A DNA stretch of 64,000 nt from positions 37,175-101,174 of the forward strand of contig CANQQR010000002.1 of the NCBI GenBank assembly GCA_947626035.1, given 5' to 3'. The notes below the pieces were generated by a model that made no database searches, was not told where the DNA came from, and was given only the letters and a program-made list of their open reading frames with translations. The stretch comes from an uncultured Bacilli bacterium (GTDB taxonomy: Bacteria > Bacillota_I > Bacilli_A > RF39 > UBA660). Below are positions 363-37,295 of this stretch, in pieces (the stretch's first letter is position 1; each line of letters starts with the position of its first letter). Made by a program: the position numbers and the translations under genes.

Positions 363-1355
363 TTAGATTTTATAATACATTTGTTTACTGCTATTTGGTT
401 TATTTGGTATGGTTTGTTTAATTAGGCCTTCTTTAATAGCGGGATGTAGATATTTGTTTCTTAATGTGTTTTTAGATTTTATATTTAGTTTTTCCATTAT
501 TTCTTTAGCGCTTAGTGGTACATTTTTTTCTAAGCAATTTAGTAATTTATTTATGTTTATTGCATCTTCAACAATTAATGTATTTGGTATTTTTAATGCT
601 TCGTCTAGTGTTTCGTCTATTATTTTTAGCATAAATTCAATAAATTCAGTGGAATTACCTAAGTTATTACAGTCATTAATTGCTTCGTAGTACCCTTTTT
701 GATATTTATATATTTGTGATTCAATTGGTAGATATTCAAATATTTTTTTCCAGTTATAAAGTAAAATGTTTTGCCATAGTCTTACGGTTCTTCCGTTTCC
801 ATCGCTAAATGGATGAATAAATACAAATTCATAGTGAAATACACTTGATAATATTAATGGATGTATTTTATTTTTATTTTCTTTTGCCCATTTTAGAAGT
901 TGTTTTATTAGATAGTCAACATTTTCAGGTGGTGGACACATAAATATGCAGTTTTTACCGTTAAATACGCCCTCGTTTCCTTTTCTGAATTTACCAGAGT
1001 CTTTTACTGTTAAATATGTTATTATACCATGGGCTTTTTTTAAGTCTTTAATACTATATGGGTTAAGATTATTTATCATTTCATAAGCATTGTAGGCGTT
1101 TTTTACTTCTTGAATGTCTTTTTTAGGGCCTAGTACTAATTTACCATCTATAACATCTTTTACTTGGTCTTTTGTTAGTTTGTTGTTTTCGATTGCAAGT
1201 GAAGAATGAATAGAATTTATTTTTGTTTGTTTTCTTAAATATGGTTTTTTATTTAGATTTGTATAGTTATCAAGTTTAGTTATTTTTTCAGAAATATTAG
1301 CTACTCTGTTTAATATGAGTTCTGTTATTTCATATGGTGGATTATATTTTTCCAT
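363..1355 (-). CDS. Fic/DOC family protein (AMPylator-type), class II with internal inhibitory motif, C-terminal wHTH-like region
   Basis: Canonical Fic motif HPFSDGNGRTVR (HPFx[D/E]GNGRxxR). An upstream SLAIEN segment matches the [S/T]xxxE[G/N] auto-inhibitory helix motif. 330 aa. Confidence 0.85.
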   Translation of the reverse strand: MEKYNPPYEITELILNRVANISEKITKLDNYTNLNKKPYLRKQTKINSIHSSLAIENNKLTKDQVKDVIDGKLVLGPKKDIQEVKNAYNAYEMINNLNPYSIKDLKKAHGIITYLTVKDSGKFRKGNEGVFNGKNCIFMCPPPENVDYLIKQLLKWAKENKNKIHPLILSSVFHYEFVFIHPFSDGNGRTVRLWQNILLYNWKKIFEYLPIESQIYKYQKGYYEAINDCNNLGNSTEFIEFMLKIIDETLDEALKIPNTLIVEDAININKLLNCLEKNVPLSAKEIMEKLNIKSKNTLRNKYLHPAIKEGLIKQTIPNKPNSSKQMYYKI

Positions 1356-1483: not shown

Positions 1484-2620
1484 TTAATTTTTAACTAAAG
1501 TTAAGCACAATCCTAATATAATTATAATTATAATTATAAAGATAATATCAATTATGCGTGATTCTATCTCTTTCTTGCTTAGTTTCTTTTTCTTTTTAGG
1601 TTTTTTGTGTTCTTCGTTGCTGTAAGCAGACATAAAAAAACTTGTATATGCTAGTATTGCTGGAATTATTGTCCATTCTCCTTTGAGGAAGAAGAATAGA
1701 ATTATTCCGGAAATATATAATATTATACTAATTGTATGAATTATTATATAGTCTTTGCGTAGATTAAGCTTGATAATTTTGTCTTTTTTAGTTGTAGTAG
1801 ACTTTGGTTTTTCTTCTGTTGTGTTTTGTAATATCGTGTATTCTTTAGGATTAAGTTTCATTATATAGATAAAACTATCTCTCATATATTTATAAGTAGA
1901 TTTAGATGTTGAATCGTTTTGCTTATGTACGTAAAGTGATTTGGTATTTAATTCTATTCCTGCTGGTAAGATATTGAATGTTGGTTCAATTAAACAATTA
2001 GTGAATAGATATTCTTTAAAACTTTCTGTACTATTGTCTACTATGATAATCATTTTAACGGATAGGTCTTTAGTAGTTATATTGTCTATTACATCTTGTA
2101 AGTCATTATTTATTTCTTCTTTTTCTATATATTCTTTCATTCTTATTATTGCATATAATTCTTTATAACCTAGACTTATCTTTTTTTCATAGATGTTTAG
2201 TTCTTCTTCATTATCATATTTCTTTTCAAGTATTAATTTATATTTTTGCTCGGTTAATTTGGTAACAATATCATTATAAACAGTTGAATAATTACTACTA
2301 TTTATTTTAAATTTGTATGCGTCTGCTTTTTTAGTTTTAAATATATCTGATTCTGATTTAACATTTAAAGTAATTAAATGCATGTGAATGTATATAGATG
2401 TTATGCCTAATATTAAATCGCCAATAAGCAAATAATCATAAATCTTTTCATAAATTTCAGTTGGTATTATAAATGGAAAAAAGAAAAATAAAGCAAATAT
2501 CATAATTCCGCTGAATATTATTAGTCCAACTATAAATATTATAATTTTGTTGAAAGTTTTTTCTTTCATGATTACCTCTTTCATAGAAATATGTTTATTC
2601 TTTAAATTTATATTTATCAA
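1484..2620 (-). CDS. Hypothetical membrane protein, paralog A of a tandem pair (N-terminal and C-terminal transmembrane segments, soluble middle domain)
   Basis: 378-aa ORF. Hydrophobic N-terminus (IIIFIVGLIIFSGIMIFALFFFFPFII) and hydrophobic C-terminal segments. It is near-identical over long stretches to the ORF at 2684..3832. Confidence 0.6.
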   Translation of the reverse strand: MININLKNKHISMKEVIMKEKTFNKIIIFIVGLIIFSGIMIFALFFFFPFIIPTEIYEKIYDYLLIGDLILGITSIYIHMHLITLNVKSESDIFKTKKADAYKFKINSSNYSTVYNDIVTKLTEQKYKLILEKKYDNEEELNIYEKKISLGYKELYAIIRMKEYIEKEEINNDLQDVIDNITTKDLSVKMIIIVDNSTESFKEYLFTNCLIEPTFNILPAGIELNTKSLYVHKQNDSTSKSTYKYMRDSFIYIMKLNPKEYTILQNTTEEKPKSTTTKKDKIIKLNLRKDYIIIHTISIILYISGIILFFFLKGEWTIIPAILAYTSFFMSAYSNEEHKKPKKKKKLSKKEIESRIIDIIFIIIIIIILGLCLTLVKN

Positions 2621-2683
2621 ATTTTTTTTGATTTGTCTGGTTCTATAGTTTAATCTGCCTATTAATACTAGATAAAATCAGGA

Positions 2684-3832
2684 TTAATGGTAAATTTTAT
2701 CTTGAATTATAACGTATATAATAGCTCCGATAAAATATGCAATAAATATAAAATAAATTACATTCATTACTTTTTCTCCTATACTTAATTTTCTTTTTTT
2801 AGGTTTTACTTTTTTCTTTTTTGTAAATTTACTTGAGTCTACATTTTCATAAAAATTAATTGCAAAACCCATTTCAGAAAGTAAAAGCGGAAAAGTTGCA
2901 TTTTTATATATCGGTGTCATTATTAAACCTGAAAAGTATAGTATTGTACTTATAATGTGTGCTACTATATAATCTTTACTTATTTTTAGTTTGATAATTT
3001 GGTCTGGATTAGATGGGTTTGATTTTTCTTCTGTTGTATTTTTTAAAATTGTGTAGTTTTTAGGGTTAAGTTTCATTATATAGATAAAGCTATCTCTCAT
3101 ATATTTATATGCAGATTTAAACATTGAATCGTTTTGTTTATGTACATAAAGTGATTTAGTATTTAATTCTATTCCTGTTGGTAAGATAGTTAACCTTTCT
3201 TCAATTAAGCAATTTGTGAATAGATACTCTTTAAATCTTTCAGTACTTTTATCTACTATGATTATTATTTTAAGTGATATGTATATTGAATTTAATGTTT
3301 CTATTAAGTCATGTAAGTCATTATCTATTTCTTCTTCTGTTTTATCTTTAAATTCTTTCATTCTTATTATTGCATAAAATTCTATGTTGCTTATACCTAA
3401 ATTTTTTTCATAGATGTTTAGCTCTTTTTCGTTATCATATTTCTTCTCTAATGTTAATTTGTATTTTTGTTCTGTTAATTTAGCAACAATATCATTATAA
3501 ACAGTTGAATAATTACTACTATTTATTTTAAATTTGTATGCGTCTGCTTTTTTAGTTTTAAATATATCTGATTCTGATTTAACATTTAAAGTGCTTAAAG
3601 TAACATGAATATATATAGCAGTTATGCCTAATATTAAATCGCCAATAAGCAAATAATCATAAATCTTTTCATAAATTTCAGTTGGTATTATAAGTGGAAA
3701 GACTAATAAAATTGCAAATAACATAATTCCACTGAATATTATTAGACTAACTATAAATATTATAATTTTGTTGAAAGTTTTTTCTTTCATGATTACCTCT
3801 TTCTTTAATATATTTTTATTCTTCAAACTCAT
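2684..3832 (-). CDS. Hypothetical membrane protein, paralog B of the tandem pair
   Basis: 382 aa. It shares long identical blocks with paralog A (e.g. PTEIYEKIYDYLLIGDLILGIT, SESDIFKTKKADAYKFKINSSNYSTVYNDIV, NCLIE..., SLYVHKQNDS, YKYMRDSFIYIMKLNPK), but the central and C-terminal parts diverge. Confidence 0.6.
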   Translation of the reverse strand: MSLKNKNILKKEVIMKEKTFNKIIIFIVSLIIFSGIMLFAILLVFPLIIPTEIYEKIYDYLLIGDLILGITAIYIHVTLSTLNVKSESDIFKTKKADAYKFKINSSNYSTVYNDIVAKLTEQKYKLTLEKKYDNEKELNIYEKNLGISNIEFYAIIRMKEFKDKTEEEIDNDLHDLIETLNSIYISLKIIIIVDKSTERFKEYLFTNCLIEERLTILPTGIELNTKSLYVHKQNDSMFKSAYKYMRDSFIYIMKLNPKNYTILKNTTEEKSNPSNPDQIIKLKISKDYIVAHIISTILYFSGLIMTPIYKNATFPLLLSEMGFAINFYENVDSSKFTKKKKVKPKKRKLSIGEKVMNVIYFIFIAYFIGAIIYVIIQDKIYH

Positions 3833-4850
3833 ATTTATCTAGTCTTTTTTTAATTTTATCTAGTTCTTTTTTTCTTTCGTCATAGTATTTTGTTGTTTCC
3901 CAATATTTTAAATCTCCCTCTATAGCTTTATAGCCTAGGCTTTTAAGATTTGGTGTTAATTTTTTAACTCTTAATAATTTGTCTACTAGTACTAGGTAAA
4001 GTATAATTCCATCCGTTACGTTTGCATATTCGCGAACATCATCAGTTAATTTATTTAATATTTGTCTTCCAGTTTTATTTTTATCATATATTTCGTTGCA
4101 AACACTTTTTACATATAGTGCTATATCATTATCATATAATTTTGGACCCCAACCATATGAGTAATGTCTACCCTCTTTTTGTCTTTTTAATACTATCTTA
4201 TCTCCTCTTTCTCTTTTATAGAGTTTATTCATAATTCTTTCGTTAAATTTTTCAGTTTCTTTTATTCCTCTTTTTGTGTATTGTTTTCCTTTTTTTAGAT
4301 TAAATGTTTCATAGCTTTCTAATAATTCATTTACAAATTTGTCTGAATTAATTGTGCTTATAAATAAGCTTTCTTTAATAAATTCTTCCTCTTCTGGAAT
4401 TTCTATTTTAAAGTTACCTATATATTTAAATTCAGGACAGTAGAATTTTTTTGGTAAAATAAATATTCTGAAAATATAAGTGTATATAAGTCCATATTTA
4501 TCAGGTTTAACTTTTATATGCTTTTTACTTTCTATTAATTCTTCTACAGATTGTTCCATCGGCTTATCTCCAAGTCTTAAATTATATGGACCTCCATAAT
4601 ATTTTATTAGTTCCAGTTTGTCAAATTCTTCTTGGGTAGTAGGGATTGTCTCGTCTTTTGTTATTTTTGCACGAAAATATTGAAATTCTGGGTATTTTGG
4701 GTCAGTTTTAATGTTTTCATTTTCAAATTTAGTGAGTAATAAATATCTTCCATTATATTTTTTAAATTCTTTATTATCGGTTTCAATTTTAACTGCGAAT
4801 GTATCGCCTGGTAGCCAATTTTTTTTAAATTTTTTATTTCCTTTTATCAT
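3816..4850 (-). CDS. Orphan paralog of the RHS-toxin immunity protein (putative immunity protein)
   Basis: 344 aa. It is strongly similar to the ORF at 6765..7811, which sits immediately downstream of the RHS toxin. The N-terminal ~90 aa and C-terminal ~60 aa are near-identical, and the 5' ~160 nt of DNA is ~95% identical. It has its own extended -10 promoter TGATATAAT (minus strand, 4882..4890) downstream of a terminator. Confidence 0.6.
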   Translation of the reverse strand: MIKGNKKFKKNWLPGDTFAVKIETDNKEFKKYNGRYLLLTKFENENIKTDPKYPEFQYFRAKITKDETIPTTQEEFDKLELIKYYGGPYNLRLGDKPMEQSVEELIESKKHIKVKPDKYGLIYTYIFRIFILPKKFYCPEFKYIGNFKIEIPEEEEFIKESLFISTINSDKFVNELLESYETFNLKKGKQYTKRGIKETEKFNERIMNKLYKRERGDKIVLKRQKEGRHYSYGWGPKLYDNDIALYVKSVCNEIYDKNKTGRQILNKLTDDVREYANVTDGIILYLVLVDKLLRVKKLTPNLKSLGYKAIEGDLKYWETTKYYDERKKELDKIKKRLDKYEFEE

Positions 4851-4907
4851 TCATTGCACCTCACTTGATTTTGTTATTTATATTATATCACAGTTTGTAC
4901 TTGAACA

Positions 4908-4943
4908 TGAAAAAAAGGTTAGCACTTTTTTTAAGTGCTAACC
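4908..4943 (-). terminator. Intrinsic terminator (9-bp stem ggttagcac/gtgctaacc, U7 tract) ending the RHS operon; overlaps the stop codon of the ArpU-like gene
   Basis: Perfect inverted repeat at 4917-4925 and 4935-4943, followed on the minus strand by UUUUUUU (reverse complement of aaaaaaa at 4909-4916). Confidence 0.7.
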
Positions 4944-5537
4944 AATTATTATGTTAAGATTTTCATTACTTTTTAATTCTAAGTATGTTTTTACTAGACA
5001 ACTCTTTTTAATCTTTTGTAAAGTAAATCTACTTATATTCAATATTTCACTTATTTCTTCTTCAGTTTTATTATTAAAGAATGTGTTTACTAAATAATAT
5101 GTTTCACTGTATGTTAATTTAGTAGATAGGCTCATTATAGTATCATAAAAATCTTTAGCCCATATTTGTTTATCTATTTTACTTGCTATGTAATTGCTTA
5201 TTTTGTCTTGTTTGTTTTTATTTTTAGTTATTTCTTTACCATATATTGGCGATATGTTTATGTAGTCTTTATCAATATATTTGGCGTCATTAAAAGTAGT
5301 GAAACTTTTTAATAAATCTTTTCTTAGATTTGTGTAGTAGTATGCTTCTATTACTTCATTGCTTAAAAGATTTCTGTAAGTTTCTTTCTTATTTTCTAAG
5401 TTTTCTAAAATTTGTTTTGGTAATTCAAAAAAATTATTATCGTTTCTCATATTATCTACTTCGACTTTCCCCCTCACATTTAATTTTTTTCTGTTTATAT
5501 TAGTCTTTTTTTGTTTAAATGTCAAGATTTTTTTCAC
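4938..5537 (-). CDS. ArpU-family / sigma-70 region-4-like phage late transcriptional regulator
   Basis: 199 aa. The C-terminus (TEEEISEILNISRFTLQKIKKS) looks like a region-4 helix-turn-helix. The overall size and layout fit ArpU-type phage late regulators. It overlaps the holin gene by 23 nt. Confidence 0.5.
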   Translation of the reverse strand: MKKILTFKQKKTNINRKKLNVRGKVEVDNMRNDNNFFELPKQILENLENKKETYRNLLSNEVIEAYYYTNLRKDLLKSFTTFNDAKYIDKDYINISPIYGKEITKNKNKQDKISNYIASKIDKQIWAKDFYDTIMSLSTKLTYSETYYLVNTFFNNKTEEEISEILNISRFTLQKIKKSCLVKTYLELKSNENLNIIIG

Positions 5538-5925
5538 TTCCTTTTAAATTATTAAATATATCGAATAGTTTTTTGGGTAATGGTAGGTTCATTAAGGCCC
5601 AGTTTTCAAGTATAGATATGGCTTCATTAGATATAAAAAAGTATAAAACTATAGTCCTTATAGCGCCACTGCTTTTTAATATTATTTTATCTAATAATGA
5701 TACTAATATAATTATTAATATATAGCCTATTTTTTTGATTATTCCTTTTATTCCTATGTTGCTATTTAATTCTTTTATGTATATTGCTTTACATATACCT
5801 GTTATGTAATCAATAATCATAAATATTAATAATATTTTAAGAAGAGAGTCTAAGCCTCCTAACAAGTATGTTATGAGGCTTAGTATACTATTACATATTA
5901 TTTCTAATTTTTTCAAAATTTTCAC
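5515..5925 (-). CDS. Holin, TcdE / Phage_holin_4_1 family
   Basis: 136 aa with three predicted transmembrane segments. The central block GGLDSLLKILLIFMIIDYITGICKAIYIKELNSNIGIKGIIKKIGYILIIILVSLLDKII and the C-terminal ISILENWALMNLPLPKKL closely resemble the C. difficile TcdE holin (..D.LLG..SAIK...FNSSFGIDGGIRKV...VD.. and SILKNM.L.GLPVPKRL), recalled from memory. Its start overlaps the stop of the M23 gene (ATGA). Confidence 0.75.
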   Translation of the reverse strand: MKILKKLEIICNSILSLITYLLGGLDSLLKILLIFMIIDYITGICKAIYIKELNSNIGIKGIIKKIGYILIIILVSLLDKIILKSSGAIRTIVLYFFISNEAISILENWALMNLPLPKKLFDIFNNLKGSEKNLDI

Positions 5926-6740
5926 CTCTTTATATATAATTGTTGACCTGGGTATATTAACCCTGGGTCTGGTCCTATTGTGTCTTTGTTATCTTCATAG
6001 ATTTTAGGCCAAGTCGTGTTATATTTGTTTGCAATATCATATAATGTATCTCCTGATTTTACTGTGTATGTTATGATGTTTGAATTGTTAGTTTGATTAG
6101 GAATACGTATTGTTTGACCCGTGATTATTAGATTAGGATTTTCTATGTTATTGTATTTTGCTAAATCTATATAATTCATATTATATAAAGAAGCAATACC
6201 ACTTAAGGTATCGCCACTTTTAACTATATATGTGATATCAGTATTATTACTTATGGCATTATTTGTTTCTAAATATTCTGGAATTGTTTTTATTCCTAGT
6301 AAATAATCTTTAGGGTCAACCCATGCATTGTTTACTTCTACACCAAAATGTAGATGTGGGCCAGTTGCATAGCCAGTAGCTCCTTTTATTCCGAGTAGTT
6401 GTCCTTTTTTTACTATATCGCCTACTTTAACTTTGATACTGTTATATTGCATGTGATAATAAACTGTATATATGTTATTTCCGTGATATAGAATAACATG
6501 GTTACCACTACCATAGGTAGTGGTATAACCTGTTATATTATCTCTTATGTCTGTAACTATTCCACTTGATACTGCTACTATTTCTGTACCGCTTGTCATG
6601 TCTATTCCGTTGTGGAAGTTACTATCATATTTATTAGTTACTTCATTATAGAATGTTCTATAACCGAAGTCTGAAGTTATATAAGAAAAATCCAATCCTT
6701 TGAAAGGACTGGATTTAATATTATTTAATGTATAACCCAT
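5922..6740 (-). CDS. Peptidoglycan hydrolase: M23 (LytM-type) metallopeptidase domain followed by two LysM domains
   Basis: 272 aa. It has the HxxxD motif (HNGIDM) and the HxH motif (GPHLHFGV) of M23 peptidases. Two C-terminal LysM repeats are present (YIVKSGDTLSGIASLY... and YTVKSGDTLYDIANKY...). No signal peptide is evident. An AGGAGG ribosome-binding site sits 8 nt upstream. Confidence 0.85.
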   Translation of the reverse strand: MGYTLNNIKSSPFKGLDFSYITSDFGYRTFYNEVTNKYDSNFHNGIDMTSGTEIVAVSSGIVTDIRDNITGYTTTYGSGNHVILYHGNNIYTVYYHMQYNSIKVKVGDIVKKGQLLGIKGATGYATGPHLHFGVEVNNAWVDPKDYLLGIKTIPEYLETNNAISNNTDITYIVKSGDTLSGIASLYNMNYIDLAKYNNIENPNLIITGQTIRIPNQTNNSNIITYTVKSGDTLYDIANKYNTTWPKIYEDNKDTIGPDPGLIYPGQQLYIKR

Positions 6741-6764
6741 TTTATTACCTCCTGTTATTAGTTT

Positions 6765-7811
6765 TTATTCTTTGAACTCATATTTATCAAGTCTTTTTTT
6801 GATTTTGTCTAGTTCTTTTTTTCTTTCGTCATAGTGTTTTGTTTTCTCCCAGAATTTTAAATCGTCTTCTATGGCTTTATAACCTATTTTTTTTAGTCCA
6901 GGTGTTAATTTTTTTACTCTCATTAATTTGTCTACTAATACTAGATAAAATCTGGGTCCATCTGTTTTGTTTATATATTCATGAGCTTCTTCATATAGTT
7001 CTCTAAATATTTGCTTTCCAGTTTTGTTTTTATCGTATATATCGTTGTAAACATTTTCTACATTTATTGATACATCACTATCATATAGTTTTGGACCCCA
7101 TCCGTATGAGTAATGAAATTCTACTTTACCTTCTTTTATCATTTTTAATATTAGCTTATCTTCTCTGTCTTTTTTATAGTAGTTTTTCATAATTCTTTCA
7201 TTGTTTTCTTCTGTTTCTTTAATTCCCTCTTTTGTATATTCTTTACCTTTTTTAAGATTAAATGTTTCATAACTTTCTAATAATTTGTTTATAAATATGT
7301 CTGAATTAAGTAGGCTTATAAATGAGCTACTTTCTTTAATAAATTCTTCTTCTTCTGAAATTTCTATTTTAAAGTTGTTTATGTATTTAAATTCTGGACA
7401 GTAGAATGTTTTTGGCGAAATAAATATTCCAAAAATATAAGTGTATATAAGTCCATATTTATCAGGTTTGACTTTTAAATGCTTTTTACTTTCTATTAAT
7501 TCTTCTACGGATTGTTCCATATGCTTATAGCCATATCTTACATTATTTGGACTTCCATAAAATTTTATTAATTCTTGTTTGTCAAATTCTTCTTGAGTAG
7601 TAGGAATAGTCTCGTCTTTTGTTATTTTTGCCCGAAAATATTGAGATTGTGGGTATTTTGGGTCAGTTTTGATGTTTTCATTTTCAAATTTAGTAAGTAT
7701 TAGATATCTTCCATTATATTTTTCAAATTCTTTATTTTCGGTTTCAATTTTAACTGCGAATGTATCGCCTGGTAGCCAATTTTTTTTAAATTTTTTATTT
7801 CCTTTTGTCAT
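6765..7811 (-). CDS. Putative immunity protein cognate to the RHS toxin C-terminal domain
   Basis: 348 aa. Its start overlaps the RHS stop (7808..7811). This is the usual position for an RHS immunity gene. It is a paralog of 3816..4850. Confidence 0.65.
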   Translation of the reverse strand: MTKGNKKFKKNWLPGDTFAVKIETENKEFEKYNGRYLILTKFENENIKTDPKYPQSQYFRAKITKDETIPTTQEEFDKQELIKFYGSPNNVRYGYKHMEQSVEELIESKKHLKVKPDKYGLIYTYIFGIFISPKTFYCPEFKYINNFKIEISEEEEFIKESSSFISLLNSDIFINKLLESYETFNLKKGKEYTKEGIKETEENNERIMKNYYKKDREDKLILKMIKEGKVEFHYSYGWGPKLYDSDVSINVENVYNDIYDKNKTGKQIFRELYEEAHEYINKTDGPRFYLVLVDKLMRVKKLTPGLKKIGYKAIEDDLKFWEKTKHYDERKKELDKIKKRLDKYEFKE

Positions 7812-10800
7812 TCATTGCACCTTTCTAAATATTTGCTTACATCATAATAGTTTTGGCCAGTTGTAAACTTATCCATTAATATATCATAATCTGGCCTGTT
7901 TGGATTTAAACCGTGAATTTGGTTTTTTGTTTTATTCTTTCTAGTGACATCAAGAGTACAATATTCTATCATGTACCATTCTTCTCTAGTACGAGCTTGT
8001 TCATAAGTTAAATTTTCTTCAACGGGAACAAGATTAAGGTGAGCTCTGTAAGGATTATTTCTATGTCTATTTTTAGTAGCTATTTTGTTATTTGTTCTTC
8101 CAACATAATATTTTCCACATAGTTTACTATTTTTTTCCCATTGGTCTTCAGTACAATCAGTTAAAACATATACTAAATTATTTGTTTCTTCTTTCTTGTC
8201 TTTTTTCTTTTTCTTTTTCTTACTACTATTATTATTAAAATCTGGTATATCAATTGAATATGCTATGCTATCGTTATTTAAGTGAGATAATGCTACTAGT
8301 GCACAAGCTATTGTTGCTACAACTTTTATTGCGTTTTCAATAGCTTGCTCCGTAGCGATTGCTTCCATAATAAATTCACCAGTTATATCTTTATGATTAA
8401 TAGGGTTATTTGTACAGTATGTGAAGATATTATATGTTGTTACTACTTCTTCGTGACCGAAGAATTTATCAGCATTAATAAATCTTCCCCATTCTGGATT
8501 ATAGTATCTAGAATTTAAATAATATAATTTAGTTTCTTCGTCATAGTAATAACTTCTGTATCTAAATGGGTTAATAATTGCAATGTTATTTTTGTCAGTT
8601 ATTTCGTTATTTAAATTATCTTTTATTGATAGTATGTTACCATATGGGTCATATGTATAAGTAGCTATTAATTCATAGTTGCTGTTATATATTCCTATGA
8701 TGTCATTTTGTGAGTTTTTCTTATAGTAGTATGTTTCTCTACTGTTGTATTTAAATCCAATTAAATCTTCATTGCTGTTGTATATATAGTTTAGCATAAT
8801 GTTAGGCTTTTCTTCAAGTATAATTAAGTTATTTTCTAATTTGTAGTTAGTTATTATACCATCTACTTCTTTTGAAGTTCTTATTCCACTTAGGTCATAT
8901 GTGTATTTATAGTCGTTGTATGAAGATAGTTTTTTACCTTTTTCCCAAGTTAGAGTGTCATTTCCTATTGTTAATGGGTTACCTATAGTATCGTATGTTA
9001 TTTCTTTGTCATTGTATTTTGTTAGTAAATCTTCCCAATTTGAGTCATTATATTCAAATGTATCTGTTTTTAATAGTAAATTATTTAGGTTGTATGTTTT
9101 CTTTTCTGTGATGTTACCTTCTTTGTCATATACGTATTTGTATAGCAAATTATTTTGATAATCTTTTGCAGTTATTAATTCGTTAATGGTATCATATTCA
9201 TATTCATTTGCTATTTCTTCGTTTATGTATATTCTTGTAACATTATATAAATCGTCGTAGTGATATTTGTATGTATCATTATCTATTGTTATTTTGTTAA
9301 TGACTAGAGAAGTTTTGTTACCGTTAGACATATATTCGTAATCTATTTTTAAATTGTTGTTTATGTTTGTATTAGTTAGTCTGCCTAGGTTATCGTAAGT
9401 ATAATTTATTTCGTTTTCGTCTATTATTACTTTTACTAGGTTGTCGTCTTTGTCATATTCATATGTTATATTTTGGAATTCAATGTTATCTTTACTGTAT
9501 TTTTTATTTTGTATGTTGTTGTTTATATCATATGTGTATTTTATGTCAAAGTTGTTGCTTATGTATTTTTGTAGTCTTCTAGCAACGTCATAGTTATATA
9601 TGTGTGTTTCTTTATCATTTATTATTTTTGCTACATTACCAAAATTATCATATAGGAAATTATAGATGTTGTCATTTTTTGTTAATGTACTTATTCTGTT
9701 TAAAGAATCGTATGTATAAGATTCTTTAAATCCGTTACCATATGTTTTACTTTTTAAGTTACCATTGTTTTCTTCATATTCATATGATATTAATGTGTTA
9801 TTATTTATTTTTATTTCTTTAGTGTTTAGGAATTCGTCATATTCTATTTTGTAGTTTTTAGTTCCACTTTTTATGTTAGTTAAGCTGTCTAGGTCGTATG
9901 TGTATTCTATTGATTTGTTGTTATTTGTTACTTTTATTAGTTCTTCTCTATCATTATATTCTAGATATGTTGTGTCTCCTTTAGCATTTGTTATAGAATT
10001 TGTTAATCCGTTTTTTGTATTTATATCATATTTTGTTTCTTTACCTAAAGTGTCAACTACACTTGTTATGAATTTTCCATCTTCTGTATAGAATGATTTG
10101 CTTTCTATATATTCTTTTAATTCAGGGTCTTCTATGTAAAATTGATTATTATATAATTTTACATCTTTATCAGTAATAGTTAGTATTCCATTTTGATTTG
10201 ATAGATTTTTAAATACATCACTTTTTGTTATGAATGAATAACTACCATTTTCATTAGGATTTAGTATGTATAAAGAATAGTCGCTATTTTTTGTTAAAGT
10301 TATGTTGTTGTTATTTTCTTTTATAGCTTTACTACCTATTTTTAATTTATAGTATGTTTCATTGTCTATTTCTTCTTTTTCTAATTTAAATGCTGCTTTG
10401 TTACAATCTCCTGGTGCAAATTTGAATATATTTTCTTTTGGGTCGAAGTATAGATATTCATTTGTTCCTTTGCTTCTTATATTGTAGTTATGATTTTCTA
10501 TAATTTCATTATCTTTTAGTGTGTTTTTAATTATGGTATTAGTTGGGTTACCAAATGAGTCATATTTTATTTGATTAGTTATTCCTGTATCAGTTATTCC
10601 ACTTAAAATTCTGTTTGGTACTTTGTTATCATATTCGTATTTGAAACTATTTCCTTTAGGATTAAATTCGCTTATTAGTTGGTTTTTATCGTCATAGTTA
10701 AATTCACTTGAGTTGTTGTTTAGTCCTGTTGTTTTTATTACATTACCATTTTTGTCATATTCAAATATGTATGTTCTAGGGTCTTTTATTACCATTATGT

Positions 10801-13800
10801 CAGTTATGTATAGTGAGTTACATTCATTTAATGATAGTATTGTAAGATTTGCTGATTCAAAGTCTGCATTTGCTACAAATGTTGCATTAAAGTAAGTCCA
10901 TTCTTCACTACTTTGTTTTAGTCCTGTAAGAGGTGCACATGTTCCAAGTTCCCCATTTACGTGGTATAAGTTCATAAGTACGCTGTTGCCTTGTGATTCG
11001 TGAACATCTTTATATGGTGTAATTCCCTCGTTTTTGTACCAAAATGATACTCTAAATGTTTCTCCTTTTTTGCCAAATAGGTGGAAGTTATAACTTGCTG
11101 TAAATTGTTCTTCAGGATGGCTGTTAATTTTTAATGCTTTTTCTTCTTCATTTATGTTTACTACTTCATAAGTACAATAATTACTATTATTGAATGTCCA
11201 ACCTGTTGTTCTGTTAGTGAAGTCTGAATTTTCTACTAGATTTCTTTCATTTGCTACTTGACCAGTTTCTAATTGCATTTCGTCAATGAAGAAGAATGAT
11301 GCTGGAACTGCATCAAAAACGATTTTTAATTTTGAGTTAGCATGGAAGTAGCCAGTAAATGTGTATTTATCAAACTCTGTTATTTGTCCAAGATTTGGAA
11401 CTGTTCTTATGTAATATTTATCTACTTCTGTTTCTACGTCGTCAAGCACTTCTATTAATCTTATATCTACATAACCGTCATAAGGAAGGTCTGGTCTTAT
11501 GTTAAGAGATAATGTGTAATAATTACTTTCTGTTATGTTATATGTAATATAAGCTTTTCTTGCTATGTGTAGACAATAGTTTTCGTCATTTGGGTATTTG
11601 CTTTGTCGACCATATGTTCCAAATATATCGAAGTTACATTCTTCAAGTGGTCTTTCAAAGTCGCTATTTATAAGAAGATTGTTTGTGTATTTAATGAATG
11701 GTGCATTTTTAGTTGGTTTATTTTTTAAATTTGTATTTTCACTTGTAACATATTCATTATAATAATCTGTTGATTCATAATATGCTTCTTTTATTTTATT
11801 TGTATTTTTAGTGTATATTGTTTTTCCAGTACTATTACCATTAGCATTAAAGGTATAAACTGATTTAATTCCTAAATTGTTTATGATAGTTGTATTTGTG
11901 TCGTTGTAAGTAAATGATAATGACATTCCATCATTATTATTGATGCTTTTTTCAGTTACTTTTTTAATTTTATAAGGAGATGCATCATAATATTCAAAAT
12001 CAAAAGATAAGTTATCAATGTCTGTTATTTTTGTTATTATATTGTTTTCGTTATAAGTAGATTTAGTTATACCATCTAATACTTTGATACTTGTTAATTT
12101 ATTGTTATCTATTGTGATAGTTGATGTTTCATAGTTACTAGTAATGGTTATATTGTTAGTACTATATGTTATATTTATTTCTTCATTGTTTCCGTCTGTG
12201 ATTTTTGATATTAGGCCATTTTCATATGCAATATTTATTTCGCTGTTTTCTGTATTTACAATTTTTGTTAAACGGTATTTATCATTTATGTTTGTATATA
12301 CTTTTTTGTTTCCTATTTTATCTGTTAGAGTATATTCATTGTTTTCATAAACAATGTCCATATTCATACCATCTTCGTCATGGTATTTGTTTTCTTCTTT
12401 TTTGTAAAAGTAATAACTTGCTCCAGTATCACTAGTTAATCTTAAATACTCTAATGTATCTAGTTGTTCTTTTTCTATGGTTTCTTCTAAACTAAATTTC
12501 CAACCTTTGCATATTCCTGATTCAGTGTTCATGATTACATTTTGCGTATTATAAATAACATTTAAAGTTACTGGGAATTTTCCACTAATTGTTTGGTTAA
12601 CATAAAATAAAGATGTTAGGTTTCCTGTTTTATTGTTTACATAACAATCTCCATTACTTAGTGCTACATTCGCATAATCAATATAGTCAAGTAGACCATT
12701 TTGATCTCTATATGTAATTGTTAAGTATGGTCTTCTTGGGGTTTCTTCTACTTCTAAATAGTCATGATATTTTGAATAACATTCATATTCGTTGAAGTTT
12801 TCGTCTATTGTTTCTGTTACCCATTTTAGCATTATTCCATTGTTTTTTGAACCTGCATACCATTTTTTTACAATTGATGTTATATCAAAGGTAGTTGTAT
12901 TTGCTAATACTTGTGTTCTTGATGGGTAAAAATATGTTTCATATTTTTTATTATAGTTTTCACTCATGTTGTTCCAAGTAGCAGTTGTTTCATCCCATTC
13001 AGTTGTTATTTCATGTACTGCGATTTTTCTATCTATTCCGTATAGTGGTCTATTTGGAAATGAGTATAGATTTACTTGTGCATTAACGATGTCAAAACTT
13101 GTACCAATTGTAGGTAGTATGAATTTTAGTAGTGCTCGGTAAATTACATTTTCTTTTGAACAACCGATTATAAGTTTATAATTTCGGTCGAAGTTATTAT
13201 TTGGTTCTGCATTTGATATAAATGTGTCATATACATTTTCGCCGTTTTTAGTAATTGTTGGGTCTATAGTTACTGGGTATATTATTTGTTCTTCCATTAG
13301 CCAGTTTGTATCTAGGTTTAATGTTAAAAGATATGTGTTATTTGGTTCTTTTTCTAAAGTATAGAATATGTTTTTATTTATTTTGTTTTGTTTATCTATC
13401 ATAAATGGTGCTTCTATTGTGAATATTATTTCATTATTATTTGTTGCTTCTATAGTTTTATTTTCTTTTAATGATAGATTTAAATCAGTTTCAATTATAA
13501 ATTCTAATTTTTCTTTTATATCGTTTTTGTTATGTAGTATAATGTTTTCTTTTAATTTTGAAGATATTACTTTATAATTTATATCTATGTTTTTAAATAC
13601 ATCTTTATATGTTATATTTTCTTTATCTTTAATTAAGTTTAAGTTGTTATTGTTTTTGATGTATGTTTTTATGAAGTGATTATCATTAGTAAGTGTTACT
13701 AATTCATTATTATTTTTATTGAATTTTGTTTTAAAACTATTATATTTGTTTTCAAAATATTCGCCTTTATCTACTAATGTGTTATCTATTTCTCTATAAA

Positions 13801-13912
13801 CACCATTATTTAAATAGTGGATGTCATTGTTATATATTTGTGCTGTTATTGTTCCATCTTCATTTAAATAATGTTTTACTTTTCTTTCTCTTAATGTTTT
13901 TAATTCTTTCAT
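7808..13912 (-). CDS. RHS / YD-repeat polymorphic toxin (2034 aa) with a variable C-terminal toxin domain (possibly GIY-YIG/URI-like nuclease)
   Basis: Dozens of YD repeats (YDxxGN..., YTYDxxxRL..., YEYDxxNxL). The RHS-core end motif is present (PFRYRSYYYDEETKLYYLNSRYYNPEWGRFINADKF). A K-rich linker (SSKKKKKKKDKKEE) precedes a ~150-aa C-terminal domain with GIY-YIG-like spacing (VYVLTD...KYYVGRT...NRHRN...E...E..YMIEY...N). No N-terminal signal peptide, transmembrane segment or LXG motif is seen. Confidence 0.9.
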   Translation of the reverse strand: MKELKTLRERKVKHYLNEDGTITAQIYNNDIHYLNNGVYREIDNTLVDKGEYFENKYNSFKTKFNKNNNELVTLTNDNHFIKTYIKNNNNLNLIKDKENITYKDVFKNIDINYKVISSKLKENIILHNKNDIKEKLEFIIETDLNLSLKENKTIEATNNNEIIFTIEAPFMIDKQNKINKNIFYTLEKEPNNTYLLTLNLDTNWLMEEQIIYPVTIDPTITKNGENVYDTFISNAEPNNNFDRNYKLIIGCSKENVIYRALLKFILPTIGTSFDIVNAQVNLYSFPNRPLYGIDRKIAVHEITTEWDETTATWNNMSENYNKKYETYFYPSRTQVLANTTTFDITSIVKKWYAGSKNNGIMLKWVTETIDENFNEYECYSKYHDYLEVEETPRRPYLTITYRDQNGLLDYIDYANVALSNGDCYVNNKTGNLTSLFYVNQTISGKFPVTLNVIYNTQNVIMNTESGICKGWKFSLEETIEKEQLDTLEYLRLTSDTGASYYFYKKEENKYHDEDGMNMDIVYENNEYTLTDKIGNKKVYTNINDKYRLTKIVNTENSEINIAYENGLISKITDGNNEEINITYSTNNITITSNYETSTITIDNNKLTSIKVLDGITKSTYNENNIITKITDIDNLSFDFEYYDASPYKIKKVTEKSINNNDGMSLSFTYNDTNTTIINNLGIKSVYTFNANGNSTGKTIYTKNTNKIKEAYYESTDYYNEYVTSENTNLKNKPTKNAPFIKYTNNLLINSDFERPLEECNFDIFGTYGRQSKYPNDENYCLHIARKAYITYNITESNYYTLSLNIRPDLPYDGYVDIRLIEVLDDVETEVDKYYIRTVPNLGQITEFDKYTFTGYFHANSKLKIVFDAVPASFFFIDEMQLETGQVANERNLVENSDFTNRTTGWTFNNSNYCTYEVVNINEEEKALKINSHPEEQFTASYNFHLFGKKGETFRVSFWYKNEGITPYKDVHESQGNSVLMNLYHVNGELGTCAPLTGLKQSSEEWTYFNATFVANADFESANLTILSLNECNSLYITDIMVIKDPRTYIFEYDKNGNVIKTTGLNNNSSEFNYDDKNQLISEFNPKGNSFKYEYDNKVPNRILSGITDTGITNQIKYDSFGNPTNTIIKNTLKDNEIIENHNYNIRSKGTNEYLYFDPKENIFKFAPGDCNKAAFKLEKEEIDNETYYKLKIGSKAIKENNNNITLTKNSDYSLYILNPNENGSYSFITKSDVFKNLSNQNGILTITDKDVKLYNNQFYIEDPELKEYIESKSFYTEDGKFITSVVDTLGKETKYDINTKNGLTNSITNAKGDTTYLEYNDREELIKVTNNNKSIEYTYDLDSLTNIKSGTKNYKIEYDEFLNTKEIKINNNTLISYEYEENNGNLKSKTYGNGFKESYTYDSLNRISTLTKNDNIYNFLYDNFGNVAKIINDKETHIYNYDVARRLQKYISNNFDIKYTYDINNNIQNKKYSKDNIEFQNITYEYDKDDNLVKVIIDENEINYTYDNLGRLTNTNINNNLKIDYEYMSNGNKTSLVINKITIDNDTYKYHYDDLYNVTRIYINEEIANEYEYDTINELITAKDYQNNLLYKYVYDKEGNITEKKTYNLNNLLLKTDTFEYNDSNWEDLLTKYNDKEITYDTIGNPLTIGNDTLTWEKGKKLSSYNDYKYTYDLSGIRTSKEVDGIITNYKLENNLIILEEKPNIMLNYIYNSNEDLIGFKYNSRETYYYKKNSQNDIIGIYNSNYELIATYTYDPYGNILSIKDNLNNEITDKNNIAIINPFRYRSYYYDEETKLYYLNSRYYNPEWGRFINADKFFGHEEVVTTYNIFTYCTNNPINHKDITGEFIMEAIATEQAIENAIKVVATIACALVALSHLNNDSIAYSIDIPDFNNNSSKKKKKKKDKKEETNNLVYVLTDCTEDQWEKNSKLCGKYYVGRTNNKIATKNRHRNNPYRAHLNLVPVEENLTYEQARTREEWYMIEYCTLDVTRKNKTKNQIHGLNPNRPDYDILMDKFTTGQNYYDVSKYLERCNE

Positions 13913-13927
13913 ATGTTCTCCTTTCGT

Positions 13928-14554
13928 TTATGCTGTTCTTTTCCAAATGTATACGGCTAGGTATGGTGGCATATTGTTGTGTTCTTTATTACCACCTGTT
14001 TTACCTGTTCCTACATTTTCGCCTGTATAATTGTATCTAGTTCCACTAAAGAATTTACCAGCTGAGGTTCCGTTTCCTTTTCCTCCAAGTAGTGTGTATG
14101 GTACCGGATTTCCTGTATCGTCGATTATTTCGTCGTGTAAATGTGATGGCATTTCGTCAATAGTTAGTTTATGATTTTTTTCTCCACCTGTTTTTTCTAA
14201 TTCATTAAAGTCGGTATCGTCTTCGTCGATTCCAACTAAGGTTCTACCTTTAGCAAATCTTTCCCATGTTCCACCAAATAAGGTACTAGGGTTAATATTA
14301 TTTGCAGTAAAATAAATAGAGCCTACTGGGTATATTGCATCAAAGTCAGTATTTCCAGTAGAACTCTCGCTTGTTGTTAGTACACTATTACAGGTAATGT
14401 TACCCATCGAGTCAATTCTAAAGTTACCTGTTGTACTACTTAAACATTTTGCTTTTAATTCATTAAATTCAGCATTTATTCCATCGCCAGTTTCAGTAAA
14501 ACAATCTTTAAAATAAATGTCGTCTAGTGTTAATATTTCTTTATTTTCTTCCAT
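13928..14554 (-). CDS. Phage tail-collar domain protein (MdpB-like), paralog 2
   Basis: 208 aa. IYPVGSIYFTANNINPSTLFGGTWERFAKGRTLVG...EKTGGEKNHKLTIDEMPSHLH matches the phage tail collar (Collar) domain pattern P.G.I....GW...DG........L.GR...G....G.E.H.LT..EMP.H.H. The N-terminal 62 aa are identical to the upstream paralog. It is followed 15 nt later by the RHS start. Confidence 0.75.
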   Translation of the reverse strand: MEENKEILTLDDIYFKDCFTETGDGINAEFNELKAKCLSSTTGNFRIDSMGNITCNSVLTTSESSTGNTDFDAIYPVGSIYFTANNINPSTLFGGTWERFAKGRTLVGIDEDDTDFNELEKTGGEKNHKLTIDEMPSHLHDEIIDDTGNPVPYTLLGGKGNGTSAGKFFSGTRYNYTGENVGTGKTGGNKEHNNMPPYLAVYIWKRTA

Positions 14555-14572
14555 TGTTTTTTTTCCTTTCGT

Positions 14573-15157
14573 TTATGCTGTTCTTTTCCACATGTAACAA
14601 GTGATGTATGGTTGTAAGTTACCTGAGTCTCCTGTTCCTGAGTTATCAACATAGCCGTGATATGTATTTGATGCGCTTTCTGGCATAACGTCATATTTTA
14701 ATCTCATTACACCATCAACCCATTCAGCTTCGCCATCAGGACTTCTATAAAAGTGGTGGTTGTGTTTTTGTAAGTATTTACTTCCGCCTGTTTTTTCTAC
14801 TTCATTAAATTCTGTTTGGTTTTTGTCTACCCCTACTAAGGTTCTTCCTATTGCGAATGATTCCCATGTTCCACCAAAGTAAGTGCTAGGGTTAATATCA
14901 TTTATTGATATATAAATAGAACCTACTGGGTATATTGTGTCAAAGGTAATACCTGTGCCTGTAGGATTATCACTTGTTGTTAGTACACTATTACAAGTAA
15001 TGTTACCCATTGAGTCAATTCTAAAGTTACCTGTTGTACTGCTTAAACATTTTGCTTTTAGTTCATTAAATTCGGCATTTATTCCATCGCCTGTTTCAGT
15101 AAAACAGTCTTTAAAATAAATGTCGTCTAGTGTTAATATTTCTTTATTTTCTGCCAT
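14573..15157 (-). CDS. Phage tail-collar domain protein (MdpB-like), paralog 1; first gene of the operon
   Basis: 194 aa. It has the same collar-domain signature (IYPVGSIYISINDINPSTYFGGTWESFAIGRTLVG...EKTGGSKY). An AAAGGAGG ribosome-binding site is present. The downstream intergenic segment with its ribosome-binding site (tcctttcgtttatgctgttcttttcc) is duplicated after both paralogs. Confidence 0.75.
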   Translation of the reverse strand: MAENKEILTLDDIYFKDCFTETGDGINAEFNELKAKCLSSTTGNFRIDSMGNITCNSVLTTSDNPTGTGITFDTIYPVGSIYISINDINPSTYFGGTWESFAIGRTLVGVDKNQTEFNEVEKTGGSKYLQKHNHHFYRSPDGEAEWVDGVMRLKYDVMPESASNTYHGYVDNSGTGDSGNLQPYITCYMWKRTA

Positions 15158-15221
15158 TTTTGTTCCTCCTTTTTTTGAAAATAAATTTTTGTTTTGTTTT
15201 AAGTTTTCATGTGTTCCACCT

Positions 15222-15269
15222 CCAAAATAAAAAATGAATTAATCTCTTCTTTCGATAATTAATTCATTT
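15222..15269 (-). terminator. Intrinsic terminator (11-12-bp perfect stem aatgaattaat/attaattcatt, 14-nt loop) downstream of the oxidoreductase-like gene
   Basis: Inverted repeat at 15233-15243 and 15258-15268. It is followed on the minus strand by UUUUAUUUUGG. Confidence 0.6.
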
Positions 15270-15316
15270 TACTACATTATAAATCATGTATTTTTAAAGT
15301 AAATATTATTTTTGTT

Positions 15317-36977: not shown

Positions 36978-37073
36978 TTTGTATCCTCTCCTTATTTTTA
37001 CTAGATTTATTATATCAAAAAAATATATTAATAGTCAATTATTTAGAATAACAAAATTATAAAAATGTAAAAT

Positions 37074-37295
37074 CTACTCTTTTGTAACATTCATGAATGC
37101 GTTTATTAGGTCAAATCCTGTTCCTATTTTTTCTACTTTGTCTTTAAATCTCATGCCATATCTTTCTTTCATTTCTTCTATCATTTTTTCTAATGGGTAG
37201 CCTCTGTTTAGTAATTTGTACCAGTGTGAGTTTTCTCTTAGGTATTTGAGTAAGTTTGGGTCGTTATAGATTTTTTCTTTTAAATTATAATTCAT
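37074..37295 (-). CDS. Hypothetical small protein (73 aa)
   Basis: ORF overlapping the upstream ORF by 1 nt (ATGA). No recognised motif. Confidence 0.4.
   Translation of the reverse strand: MNYNLKEKIYNDPNLLKYLRENSHWYKLLNRGYPLEKMIEEMKERYGMRFKDKVEKIGTGFDLINAFMNVTKE

Follow-up and report, generated by a model that had tools for sequence, protein, structure and literature searches.

How do Gram-positive bacteria export RHS proteins of at least 200 kDa, and how do such proteins enter a neighboring cell? Both steps are an acknowledged gap (PMC12704120), and the question is raised by a locus within a stretch of 64,000 nucleotides (hereafter the window; G+C about 27%) from an uncultured Bacilli bacterium of the RF39/UBA660 lineage (GCA_947626035.1, contig CANQQR010000002.1, positions 37,175 to 101,174). 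Seven open reading frames (ORFs) on the minus strand, spanning 4938–15157, encode two short phage receptor-binding-type proteins (COL1 and COL2), an RHS/YD-repeat polymorphic toxin, its predicted immunity protein, an M23/LysM peptidoglycan hydrolase, a TcdE-family holin, and a small sigma-like regulator. We propose that this cassette is a domesticated phage late/lysis module and that release of the RHS toxin depends on the lysis genes encoded beside it, a reading to which we assign a probability of roughly 0.6. The same interpretation was offered by a first-pass annotation made from the letters of the DNA, and computational analysis supports it through the conserved association of these genes in related genomes and through the housekeeping character of their flanks.

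The association was examined across relatives of the RHS gene. More than 480 RHS homologues of about 2000–2100 amino acids (aa) were found, with 35–45% identity and conservation from residue 1. Scanning a genome collection with the single RHS sequence retrieved no relatives, and an alignment-based scan was required; the profile-guided scan of one genome per species yielded 574 tblastn-confirmed stretches, of which the best 80 were kept. Gene content was compared in 79 loci with a full RHS gene, including a subset of 38 flanked on each side by 8 kb or more (full-flank loci), after ORFs had been called in all loci and clustered and small hidden Markov models had been built from the window genes. 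The hosts are nearly all uncultured gut Bacilli, 'Tenericutes,' or Bacillota metagenome-assembled genomes, such as Acholeplasma sp. CAG:878, Mycoplasma sp. CAG:776, and Candidatus Onthocola, Scybalousia, and Coprovivens. COL is the gene directly upstream of RHS in 64 of the 79 loci (34 of the 38 full-flank loci), a hydrolase is present in 36 (22), a hydrolase next to a holin in 28 (18), and a sigma-like gene in 25 (16). It is therefore COL, a protein of the Gp10_C family, and not the holin that accompanies RHS most constantly, although the first-pass annotation had given COL no more than an incidental place. The hydrolase–holin pair nevertheless recurs in 47% of full-flank loci; in a random 20-kb stretch of a Firmicute genome of about 2 Mb, a holin–endolysin pair is expected in a few per cent of cases, a rough estimate and not a computed control. 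A search of related genomes for the gene order of the window, as the first-pass annotation had suggested, therefore recovers a signal-less hydrolase beside a holin in 18 of the 38 full-flank loci, and with it a recurrent co-occurrence of RHS toxin and holin.

Five layouts were distinguished among these loci. Layout A, shared by the window and loci L005, L011, L014, L020, and L076, comprises one or two COL genes, RHS, immunity genes, M23/LysM, holin, and sigma-like regulator. Layout B begins with the sigma-like gene and continues with COL, an ORF of about 120 aa, RHS, immunity, holin, and M23. Layout C consists of an XRE-type membrane regulator, a secreted protein, the sigma-like gene, COL, RHS, immunity, two small membrane proteins, and a hydrolase. 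In layout D, small membrane proteins and M23 precede COL and RHS, and in layout E, hydrolase and holin stand divergently upstream of COL-RHS. The first-pass annotation had taken the placement of the endolysin before the holin as a sign of a functional unit; the association of the genes is real, but their order is not diagnostic, because endolysin–holin, holin–endolysin, and both genes upstream of RHS all occur. At least three holin families are represented (Phage_holin_4_1, phrog_443, and phrog_1299/1129), together with M23 and GH25 hydrolases assigned by Pfam and CHAP-like and M15-like hydrolases judged by N-terminal sequence motifs. All cluster-linked hydrolases lack an N-terminal hydrophobic segment, and M23 genes located elsewhere in the loci have one. 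Precomputed Pfam annotation of five contexts places the cassette wedged between housekeeping genes: between IleRS/ArsC and GH3/NfeD/UDG; between AsnS and UDG; between iPGM and SpoIVA/sortase/PBP; between CysRS and ClpP/GAPDH; and, in the syntenic relative L005, between an ABC transporter upstream and LysR/NUDIX/oxidoreductase/FtsK downstream.

Within the window, the ORF calls and the sequence confirm the earlier description of seven tightly packed minus-strand genes closed by a terminator (Table 1). COL1 and COL2 are separated by an 18-nucleotide (nt) spacer with the ribosome-binding site AAAGGAAAA. The next three junctions are as previously described: a 15-nt gap between COL2 and RHS, now seen to contain AAAGGAG; a 4-nt ATGA overlap between RHS and the immunity gene; and 24 nt with AGGAGG between the immunity and M23 genes. 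The M23 and holin genes do overlap, but through GTGA (GTG 5925–5923, TGA 5924–5922) and not through the ATGA reported earlier, and on an identical contig, a public gene call places the holin start at the in-frame TTG at 5916, 5 nt past the M23 stop, to give 133 aa. An exact-protein look-up of the M23 gene returned one match, on a 3.85-kb contig. A 23-nt overlap between holin and regulator, also claimed at first, exists for the longest ORF only (GTG 5537). Because ten regulator homologues of 156–179 aa align from the ATG at 5450, leaving a 64-nt spacer with a promoter-like TTGACA-17-TAATAT at 5525–5497, translational coupling of this last gene is doubtful. The regulator gene may have a basal promoter of its own besides read-through transcription, and the whole cassette is predicted to be co-transcribed as a single unit.

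Table 1. Features of the RHS cassette and of the genes past its terminator, in window coordinates
Feature	Coordinates	Strand	Description
Promoter-like TTTACT-16-TATAAT	15276–15303	-	consensus match only; 5′ of COL1; candidate operon promoter
Leader hairpin and U-run	15228–15270	-	AT-rich; between promoter-like site and COL1; RNA fold -12.3 kcal/mol, z -2.0
COL1	14573–15157	-	194 aa; Gp10_C, PF21939 9e-28; matches PHROG tail proteins
COL2	13928–14554	-	208 aa; COL1 paralogue; Gp10_C, PF21939 5e-34
RHS/YD-repeat polymorphic toxin	7808–13912	-	2034 aa; RHS_repeat, YD_repeat, Rhs_assc_core, DNRLRE
RHS N-terminal all-beta domain	13283–13912	-	aa 1–210; conserved
DNRLRE/CBM96-like glycan-binding module	12713–13231	-	aa 228–400
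RHS-associated core domain	8378–8653	-	ends in cleavage-type motif NPINHKDITGEF
Hydrophobic helix and Lys-rich linker	8282–8374	-	helix aa 1857–1875; past cleavage-type motif
C-terminal toxin domain	7811–8200	-	aa 1905–2034; GIY-YIG (URI)-like putative nuclease
Predicted immunity gene	6765–7811	-	348 aa
Endolysin-like M23/LysM hydrolase	5922–6740	-	Peptidase_M23 and two LysM; PHROG endolysins
TcdE-family holin	5515–5925	-	133–136 aa; start GTG 5925 or TTG 5916
Sigma-70 region-4-like regulator	4938–5537	-	longest ORF; probable start ATG 5450, 170 aa
Intrinsic terminator	4910–4943	-	11-bp stem (5 GC pairs) at 4917–4943, then T7
Putative orphan immunity cluster	1484–4890	-	past operon terminator
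Immunity paralogue	3816–4850	-	79% identical to operon copy
Paralogous 4-TM proteins (two)	2684–3832, 1484–2620	-	paralogy from alignment/repeats; transmembrane (TM) segments from hydropathy

The candidate operon promoter lies next to the stop codon of the upstream oxidoreductase gene, read from the sequence at 15317. From this site to COL1, the leader (15198–15303, minus strand) runs through the hairpin and U-run and a mini-ORF of three codons (ATG AAA ACT TAA) with its own GGAGG to the COL1 ribosome-binding site. The same hairpin-plus-T-run arrangement precedes COL in the closest relative, L005, and the hairpin may function as an attenuator or antitermination target. In L014, L020, and L064, a different stem stands 5′ of COL with the same T-run and GGGG/GGAGG, and may sit inside a small upstream ORF.

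The RHS protein matches PF05593 at 1.1e-16 (above cut-off), TIGR01643 at 5.5e-12, and DNRLRE at 5.5e-25, and its core (aa 1754–1845) matches TIGR03696 at 1e-17 (64.4 bits versus a cut-off of 32.5); its homologues carry the TEN_YD-shell PF25023. Within the cleavage-type motif that closes the core, D1842 and G1845 are invariant in a 27-sequence alignment. No PHROG family matches the protein. An AF2 model of residues 1–430 is all-beta (pLDDT 86), and Foldseek aligns the DNRLRE part with the CBM96 modules 7vbo and 8wab, which bind alginate and chondroitin sulphate (TM 0.67–0.74); for the N-terminal 210 aa, Foldseek returned no convincing structural match.

A hydropathy scan detected no N-terminal hydrophobic segment in the RHS, M23, or COL proteins. 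Such a segment is likewise absent from 66 of 67 full-length RHS relatives, and the N-terminus of the family is conserved and charged (MKELxxLRKxREKHF). Pfam and NCBIfam searches found no LXG or WXG domain in the RHS protein. The first-pass annotation had denied it a Sec signal, a TM segment, and an LXG/T7SS-like N-terminus; the first and last of these points hold, and a hydrophobic helix, the sole hydrophobic segment of the protein in the hydropathy scan, follows the cleavage-type motif. This helix may be a membrane-entry helper. Two conventional export routes were considered and rejected: Sec export, because a signal peptide is absent, and export by way of T7SS (type VII secretion) as an LXG protein, because LXG and WXG domains are lacking and the sole FtsK-like neighbor, found in a relative, has the alpha and gamma domains of a genuine FtsK.

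The last 130 aa of the RHS protein keep invariant Y, Y-x-G-R, E, and N residues, and a GIY-YIG-like fold and motif suggest a putative nuclease. Most RHS homologues cover only about 91–92% of the query, and therefore their C-terminal toxin differs; about ten cover 99%. Wherever loci sharing the C-terminal toxin (match past residue 2000) also offer downstream sequence, the same immunity family follows 3′ (12 of 12), and a thirteenth toxin-sharing locus, L008, stops 31 nt past RHS. Toxin type thus co-varies with the downstream immunity family. The gene that follows RHS in the window is predicted to be the cognate immunity gene and to confer protection. Neither the immunity protein nor the proteins with four TM segments (4-TM) could be assigned to a Pfam, NCBIfam, PHROG, or PADLOC family.

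The two proteins upstream of RHS were initially labeled tail collars. This label was revised, as both match Gp10_C (PF21939) and not PF07484 Collar. COL1 and COL2 are identical at 61 of 63 positions in the N-terminus, 42 of 62 in the middle, and 26 of 106 in the tip, a pattern that fits exchangeable binding heads on a constant adaptor. The C-terminal 140 aa of COL2 are about 50% identical to the tail-protein tips of Streptococcus phage A25/Javan, and the C-terminal head also matches Lactococcus phage receptor-binding proteins. No tail genes were found beside COL in the window, nor in the majority of its related loci. One relative (L101, 17658–19436) encodes an extra 592-aa protein with PF07484 Collar directly after the M23 gene, so that a single cassette can combine two distinct families of phage fiber tip. 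In 20 loci, among them L002, L012, L013, L015, L022, L027, L034, and L103, an ORF of about 120 aa (family f4, without Pfam or PHROG match) intervenes between COL and RHS; it does not occur in the window and could encode an assembly or adaptor factor.

The TcdE/Phage_holin_4_1 assignment of the holin is borne out above curated cut-offs, with PF05105 at 1e-37 (129 bits versus 22.2) and TIGR01593, 'toxin secretion/phage lysis holin,' at 97.8 bits (versus 40.2). The protein also matches the holin family phrog_199 and has two strong TM segments in the hydropathy scan; membrane-permeabilizing activity is predicted. Pfam and hydropathy agree with the earlier description of the abutting hydrolase as M23 plus two LysM domains without a signal peptide. 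Matches between this hydrolase and isolated phages cover partial domains only, and for this reason a donor phage cannot be named.

For the last gene, the term ArpU-like could not be kept: at E≤1, the ArpU profile does not match the window protein, which shows weak sigma-70 region-4 similarity instead. Its matches to TIGR02937 (7.5e-6; 25.7 bits versus a cut-off of 42.9) and Sigma70_r4 (E 0.009) are sub-threshold and region 4-like only. Pfam, PHROG, and phage databases otherwise gave no match, and a profile search of the PDB gave noise only (ferritin matches, E about 0.04). Across the family, 8 of 11 members match sigma-70 models weakly and 2 of 11 match TIGR01637 phage_arpU at 3e-5. Many relatives carry, 5′ of the sigma-like gene, genes for an XRE-type helix-turn-helix and TM protein (about 245 aa) and for a protein of about 250 aa with a hydrophobic N-terminus. 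This three-gene regulatory module, present in L016, L025, L054, L066, L068, L078, and L084 and absent from the window, recalls repressor/anti-sigma arrangements. Near the cassette, L027, L050, L060, L068, and L083 also carry a second sigma-like gene with a large serine recombinase (520–600 aa) encoded behind it, which suggests that some copies sit on integrative elements.

These components can be assembled into a working model. A trigger would act through the sigma-like protein, whose gene may be preceded by that of an XRE-type regulator in relatives. The sigma-like protein would then turn on a long transcript covering COL, RHS, immunity, endopeptidase, and holin genes; a regulator that both activates and is transcribed from the operon promoter would constitute a positive-feedback switch that lends itself to firing in part of the population. 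An RHS cocoon of about 230 kDa would fold in the cytoplasm without an export signal, the holin would permeabilize the producer membrane, and the M23/LysM endopeptidase would open the cell wall, so that a fraction of the cells lyses and the folded cocoon is freed, probably with COL bound. The COL head and the glycan-binding modules of RHS could dock on envelope glycopolymers of a competitor, after which the C-terminal region would leave the cocoon and enter the target aided by the hydrophobic helix, and the GIY-YIG nuclease would degrade the target DNA and cause death. The immunity protein would shield kin, and the orphan immunity genes described below would guard against the toxins of relatives.

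As a more tentative extension, the product could be a tail-less, phage-derived 'RHS-ocin,' that is, a soluble and diffusible, contact-independent RHS bacteriocin guided by a receptor-binding head; this is possible, though we lean against it. Short Gp10_C proteins would trimerize and dock through their conserved N-terminus of about 60 aa on the N-terminal beta-domain of RHS, and the target range would be set by exchangeable phage receptor-binding heads, two of which the window genome encodes. A sub-population, committed by a bistable sigma-like switch, would release the particle through programmed suicide by holin and endolysin, and competitors would be killed without contact or a secretion machine.

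The genes around the cassette bear on its present state. Upstream of the operon lie genes for a GFO/IDH/MocA oxidoreductase, LysR, SMC, RNase III, ZnuA, and RuvB/RuvA, and the window further encodes RelA, SecDF, ComEC, DnaE, PolA, PolC, ThyA, tRNA synthetases, and RadC. It is ordinary housekeeping chromosome. No phage structural genes (terminase, portal, capsid, or tail) were found in the 64 kb, of which only 362 nt extend past the Fic gene at the downstream end. An intact prophage was accordingly rejected, and the adjoining prophage that the first-pass annotation had named as fatal to its proposal did not appear: the neighbors are housekeeping genes, immunity paralogues, and Fic. The downstream side of the syntenic relative L005 likewise holds LysR, NUDIX, oxidoreductase, and FtsK genes.

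Past the terminator, three genes look like orphan immunity genes expressed constitutively and apart from the toxin operon. An extended -10 element, TGATATAAT, read from the sequence at 4890–4882, precedes the immunity paralogue as part of a putative promoter, and both immunity copies share the ribosome-binding-site/start context AGGTGCAATGAATGA. The 4-TM family of the other two genes occurs directly 3′ of RHS in about ten other loci, for example L002, L005, L006, L054, and L073. The lysis-regulator module is flanked by the two immunity copies, about 2.95 kb apart, an arrangement that hints at a history of recombination or duplication. After the orphan genes comes a Fic/DOC protein (363–1355, minus strand) with a Fic-like C-terminal winged helix and a match to the PADLOC model of the anti-phage defense system SoFic at 1.3e-41. 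Elsewhere in the window (51121–53743, minus strand), two ORFs of 532 and 332 aa without a Pfam match lie between the genes for thymidylate synthase and ArgRS.

The nature of the host bears on the substrate of the M23 enzyme. No peptidoglycan synthesis gene turned up among the window ORFs that were scanned, and the flanks of relatives hold FtsW/RodA, class A penicillin-binding protein, and sortase. In many walled Firmicutes, radC is followed by mreB-mreC-mreD; in the window (36507–38393, minus strand), two small ORFs and dnaE come next. The host may be a member of the RF39/RFN20-type orders, which are in part wall-less, and wall-bearing and wall-less species are mixed in the orders related to it (PMC10868615).

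Several observations weigh against lysis-dependent release. No hydrolase lies within 10 kb of RHS in 16 of the 38 full-flank loci, and the lysis pair is therefore not obligatory in cis; a local pair is missing in about 40–50% of full-flank loci. Degraded copies occur, such as the 114-aa M23 fragment in L011. The variety of holins, which might be read as proof of functional replacement, was downgraded because different donor phages could, at least in part, yield the same pattern. In layout D, holin and M23 may be prophage genes that carry COL-RHS as cargo downstream of them. The family assignment of the regulator is sub-threshold and its start codon uncertain.

Layout D also bears on where the cassette came from. 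IMG/VR holds only a handful of contigs with the RHS family. Four layout D loci (L051, L052, L079, and the IMG/VR contig L087) share one arrangement, which in L087 runs from a true tail protein of 652 aa, matching phrog_372 and bearing a Gp10_C head, through two small membrane proteins and M23 to a short COL and RHS; in L089 and L090, a more distant RHS directly follows a prophage tail protein and endolysin. From these cases it follows that COL-RHS can ride at the lysis end of a prophage, the classical moron position, and layout D is likely an evolutionary intermediate with the RHS module in that position behind a prophage lysis cassette. Its most likely ancestor is the end of a Gram-positive phage that encodes receptor-binding protein, holin, and endolysin, together with the late regulator of that phage. 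A prophage remnant is thus probably the origin of the window cassette and not its present state. Prophage origin leaves unexplained why compact, intact cassettes without structural genes stand between housekeeping genes in many species, why many such cassettes have the sigma-like gene directly before COL-RHS, and why the hydrolases stay signal-less and holin-paired.

The strictest form of the prophage argument holds that COL, holin, endolysin, and sigma-like genes are late-region leftovers of a decaying prophage, with RHS and immunity as a moron and no delivery role for the lysis genes. All non-RHS genes indeed have phage relatives, and the canonical order in Gram-positive siphophages, receptor-binding protein, holin, and endolysin, would give the observed order once an RHS-immunity pair is inserted. 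The placement of COL-RHS behind tail protein, holin, and M23 in L087 and of RHS behind a prophage endolysin in L089 and L090, the serine recombinases near several loci, and the absence of lysis genes from many RHS loci all fit this account. Yet capsid, portal, terminase, and tape-measure families do not recur within 10 kb in the 79 loci, phage tail genes appear only in a few layout D loci, and the flanks are mostly housekeeping; the 64-kb window itself has no phage structural genes. The ORFs, moreover, remain intact and tightly coupled while the RHS proteins have diverged to 35–45% identity, and the sigma-like gene stands immediately 5′ of COL-RHS in many loci, as if a late operon had been pared down to these genes. 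We therefore consider continuing decay improbable. In another reading, COL and RHS would be accessory tail-tip parts of a phage or tailocin encoded elsewhere, the RHS toxin riding on that particle and the local lysis genes serving it. In known phages, Gp10_C heads form part of the virion, some COL proteins reach 350–655 aa and match whole tail proteins, and a polymorphic-toxin survey lists tail-fiber-linked toxins (PMC3482391). The COL proteins of the window, on the other hand, have just 194 and 208 aa, the RHS protein matches no PHROG, particle genes are unlinked in most of the 79 loci, and the cassette has its own regulator and lysis genes, which makes an external particle the most far-fetched of the readings considered.

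A different objection accepts the cassette as functional and reassigns the hydrolase, which would be exported with RHS through the holin without lysis and would mainly thin the target wall, letting the 230-kDa RHS cocoon through to the target membrane. A case for holin-dependent export without lysis has been made for clostridial toxins and Bcn5 (PMC9527704), the passage of very large RHS proteins through Gram-positive walls is an acknowledged open problem (PMC12704120), and the wall-binding modules of the hydrolases (LysM and PG_binding_1) are equally usable on the wall of a neighbor. A self-directed endolysin would also be pointless in the wall-less species of related orders (PMC10868615). 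A holin beside a signal-less hydrolase is, however, the canonical lysis pair, and work on C. difficile and Yersinia favors lysis of a sub-population (PMC12485765, PMC10847048). Sequence does not separate lytic from non-lytic modes, and the two are not mutually exclusive; we regard an attack role for the hydrolase as unlikely, though less so than prophage decay. The preferred reading remains a domesticated lysis cassette that opens the producer and frees the RHS toxin.

If this reading is correct, the locus and its relatives would offer a concrete answer to the RHS export gap, in the form of a phage-type lysis pair, a private regulator, and targeting by a receptor-binding head. Full-text literature searches that combined RHS with holin, endolysin, tail collar, or receptor-binding protein brought up no account of such a system, and the main polymorphic-toxin survey does not mention holins and includes no lysis-cassette route among its trafficking modes (PMC3482391). 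The holin/endolysin release principle of clostridial toxins, Bcn5, and the type 10 secretion system (T10SS) would be extended to polymorphic toxin-immunity systems, and RHS polymorphic toxins would gain a new, contact-independent delivery mode. The cassette would represent a widespread competition system, and may be a major weapon, in the almost unstudied RF39-like gut Bacilli. The combination of an exchangeable receptor-binding head and an exchangeable toxin tip would be an attractive scaffold for engineered narrow-spectrum antibacterials.

Comparable release systems are known. A sigma-70-family factor, a holin, and an endolysin accompany both the large clostridial toxins, which lack a signal peptide, and the Bcn5 bacteriocins (PMC9527704). 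The C. difficile PaLoc (tcdR, tcdB, tcdE, tcdL, tcdA) and the TcsL/TpeL loci resemble the window cassette in encoding a huge, cytoplasm-folded toxin without a signal peptide, and further in the holin family (Phage_holin_4_1/TIGR01593), a phage-derived endolysin gene, and a small dedicated regulator, which there belongs to the sigma-70 family and here shows weak similarity to it. C. difficile toxins are freed by TcdE lysis of a toxin-producing minority (PMC12485765), and the likeness would extend to release if that of the window toxin is holin-linked, PaLoc release being probably sub-population lysis (PMC9527704, PMC12485765). The PaLoc differs in that its toxins glucosylate host-cell targets, whereas the window encodes a predicted antibacterial RHS toxin with an immunity gene; in that TcdL is a remnant, in contrast to the intact M23/LysM endolysin here; and in lacking the near-constant phage receptor-binding-type partner gene. 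The window regulator cannot be placed in the TcdR family.

In C. perfringens, the Bcn5 locus, made up of the sigma factor gene uviA, the holin gene uviB, an amidase endolysin gene, and bcn, is alike in that a Sec-less antibacterial toxin is always linked to a sigma factor (sigma-like in the window), a holin, and an endolysin (PMC9527704), and Bcn5 and several homologues share a hydrophobic C-terminal domain (PMC9527704). It differs in its BhlA holin, as opposed to the TcdE type here, in its endolysin type, in a toxin unrelated to an RHS cocoon with a putative GIY-YIG nuclease, and in the immunity gene, orphan immunity genes, and Gp10_C genes found only in the window system.

The Yersinia Tc/T10SS system combines an RHS-cocoon toxin too large for classical secretion with a holin/endolysin cassette, and in both respects resembles the window. 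The BC subunits of Tc toxins form the RHS cocoon, and the T10SS lysis cassette of Yersinia is not known to be part of the toxin operon. In Yersinia entomophaga, Yen-Tc is freed by this cassette in specialized lysing cells (PMC10847048, PMC10847046). The remark in the first-pass annotation that it was not aware of RHS toxins coupled in this way thus meets a partial precedent in the T10SS-released Tc toxins (PMC10847048). The Tc/T10SS system differs in being Gram-negative, in its spanin, insecticidal action, separate TcA injection device, and other regulators, and in having no immunity gene.

Older paradigms share parts of the logic. Colicin operons consist of activity, immunity, and lysis genes, and they are alike in the toxin-immunity-lysis scheme and the sacrifice of producers, although a lysis lipoprotein takes the place of the true holin–endolysin pair. 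In B. subtilis PBSX, the late operon, with xhlA, xhlB, and xlyA at its end, is under the control of an xre repressor and the sigma-like Xpf; many loci related to the window are similarly ordered as XRE, sigma-like, COL-RHS, small membrane proteins, and hydrolase. Unlike colicins and R/F-type pyocins/PBSX, the cassette has no colicin-type translocation domain and no tail/sheath particle.

On the toxin side, the counterpart is WapA of Bacillus and Streptococcus, a Gram-positive RHS/YD-repeat protein that likewise has a DNRLRE module, C-terminal toxins that vary, and immunity genes downstream (PMC12704120). It relies on a Sec signal and wall-anchoring domains (PMC12704120) and acts by contact, whereas the RHS protein here is signal-less and linked to lysis and Gp10_C genes; hydropathy scanning and the charged N-terminus give no sign of a WapA-type signal peptide in the window protein. 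Measured against all of these systems, the release logic is already known, and what is new is the RHS toxin-immunity cargo, its phage receptor-binding head partner, and the setting in uncultured, small-genome gut Bacilli.

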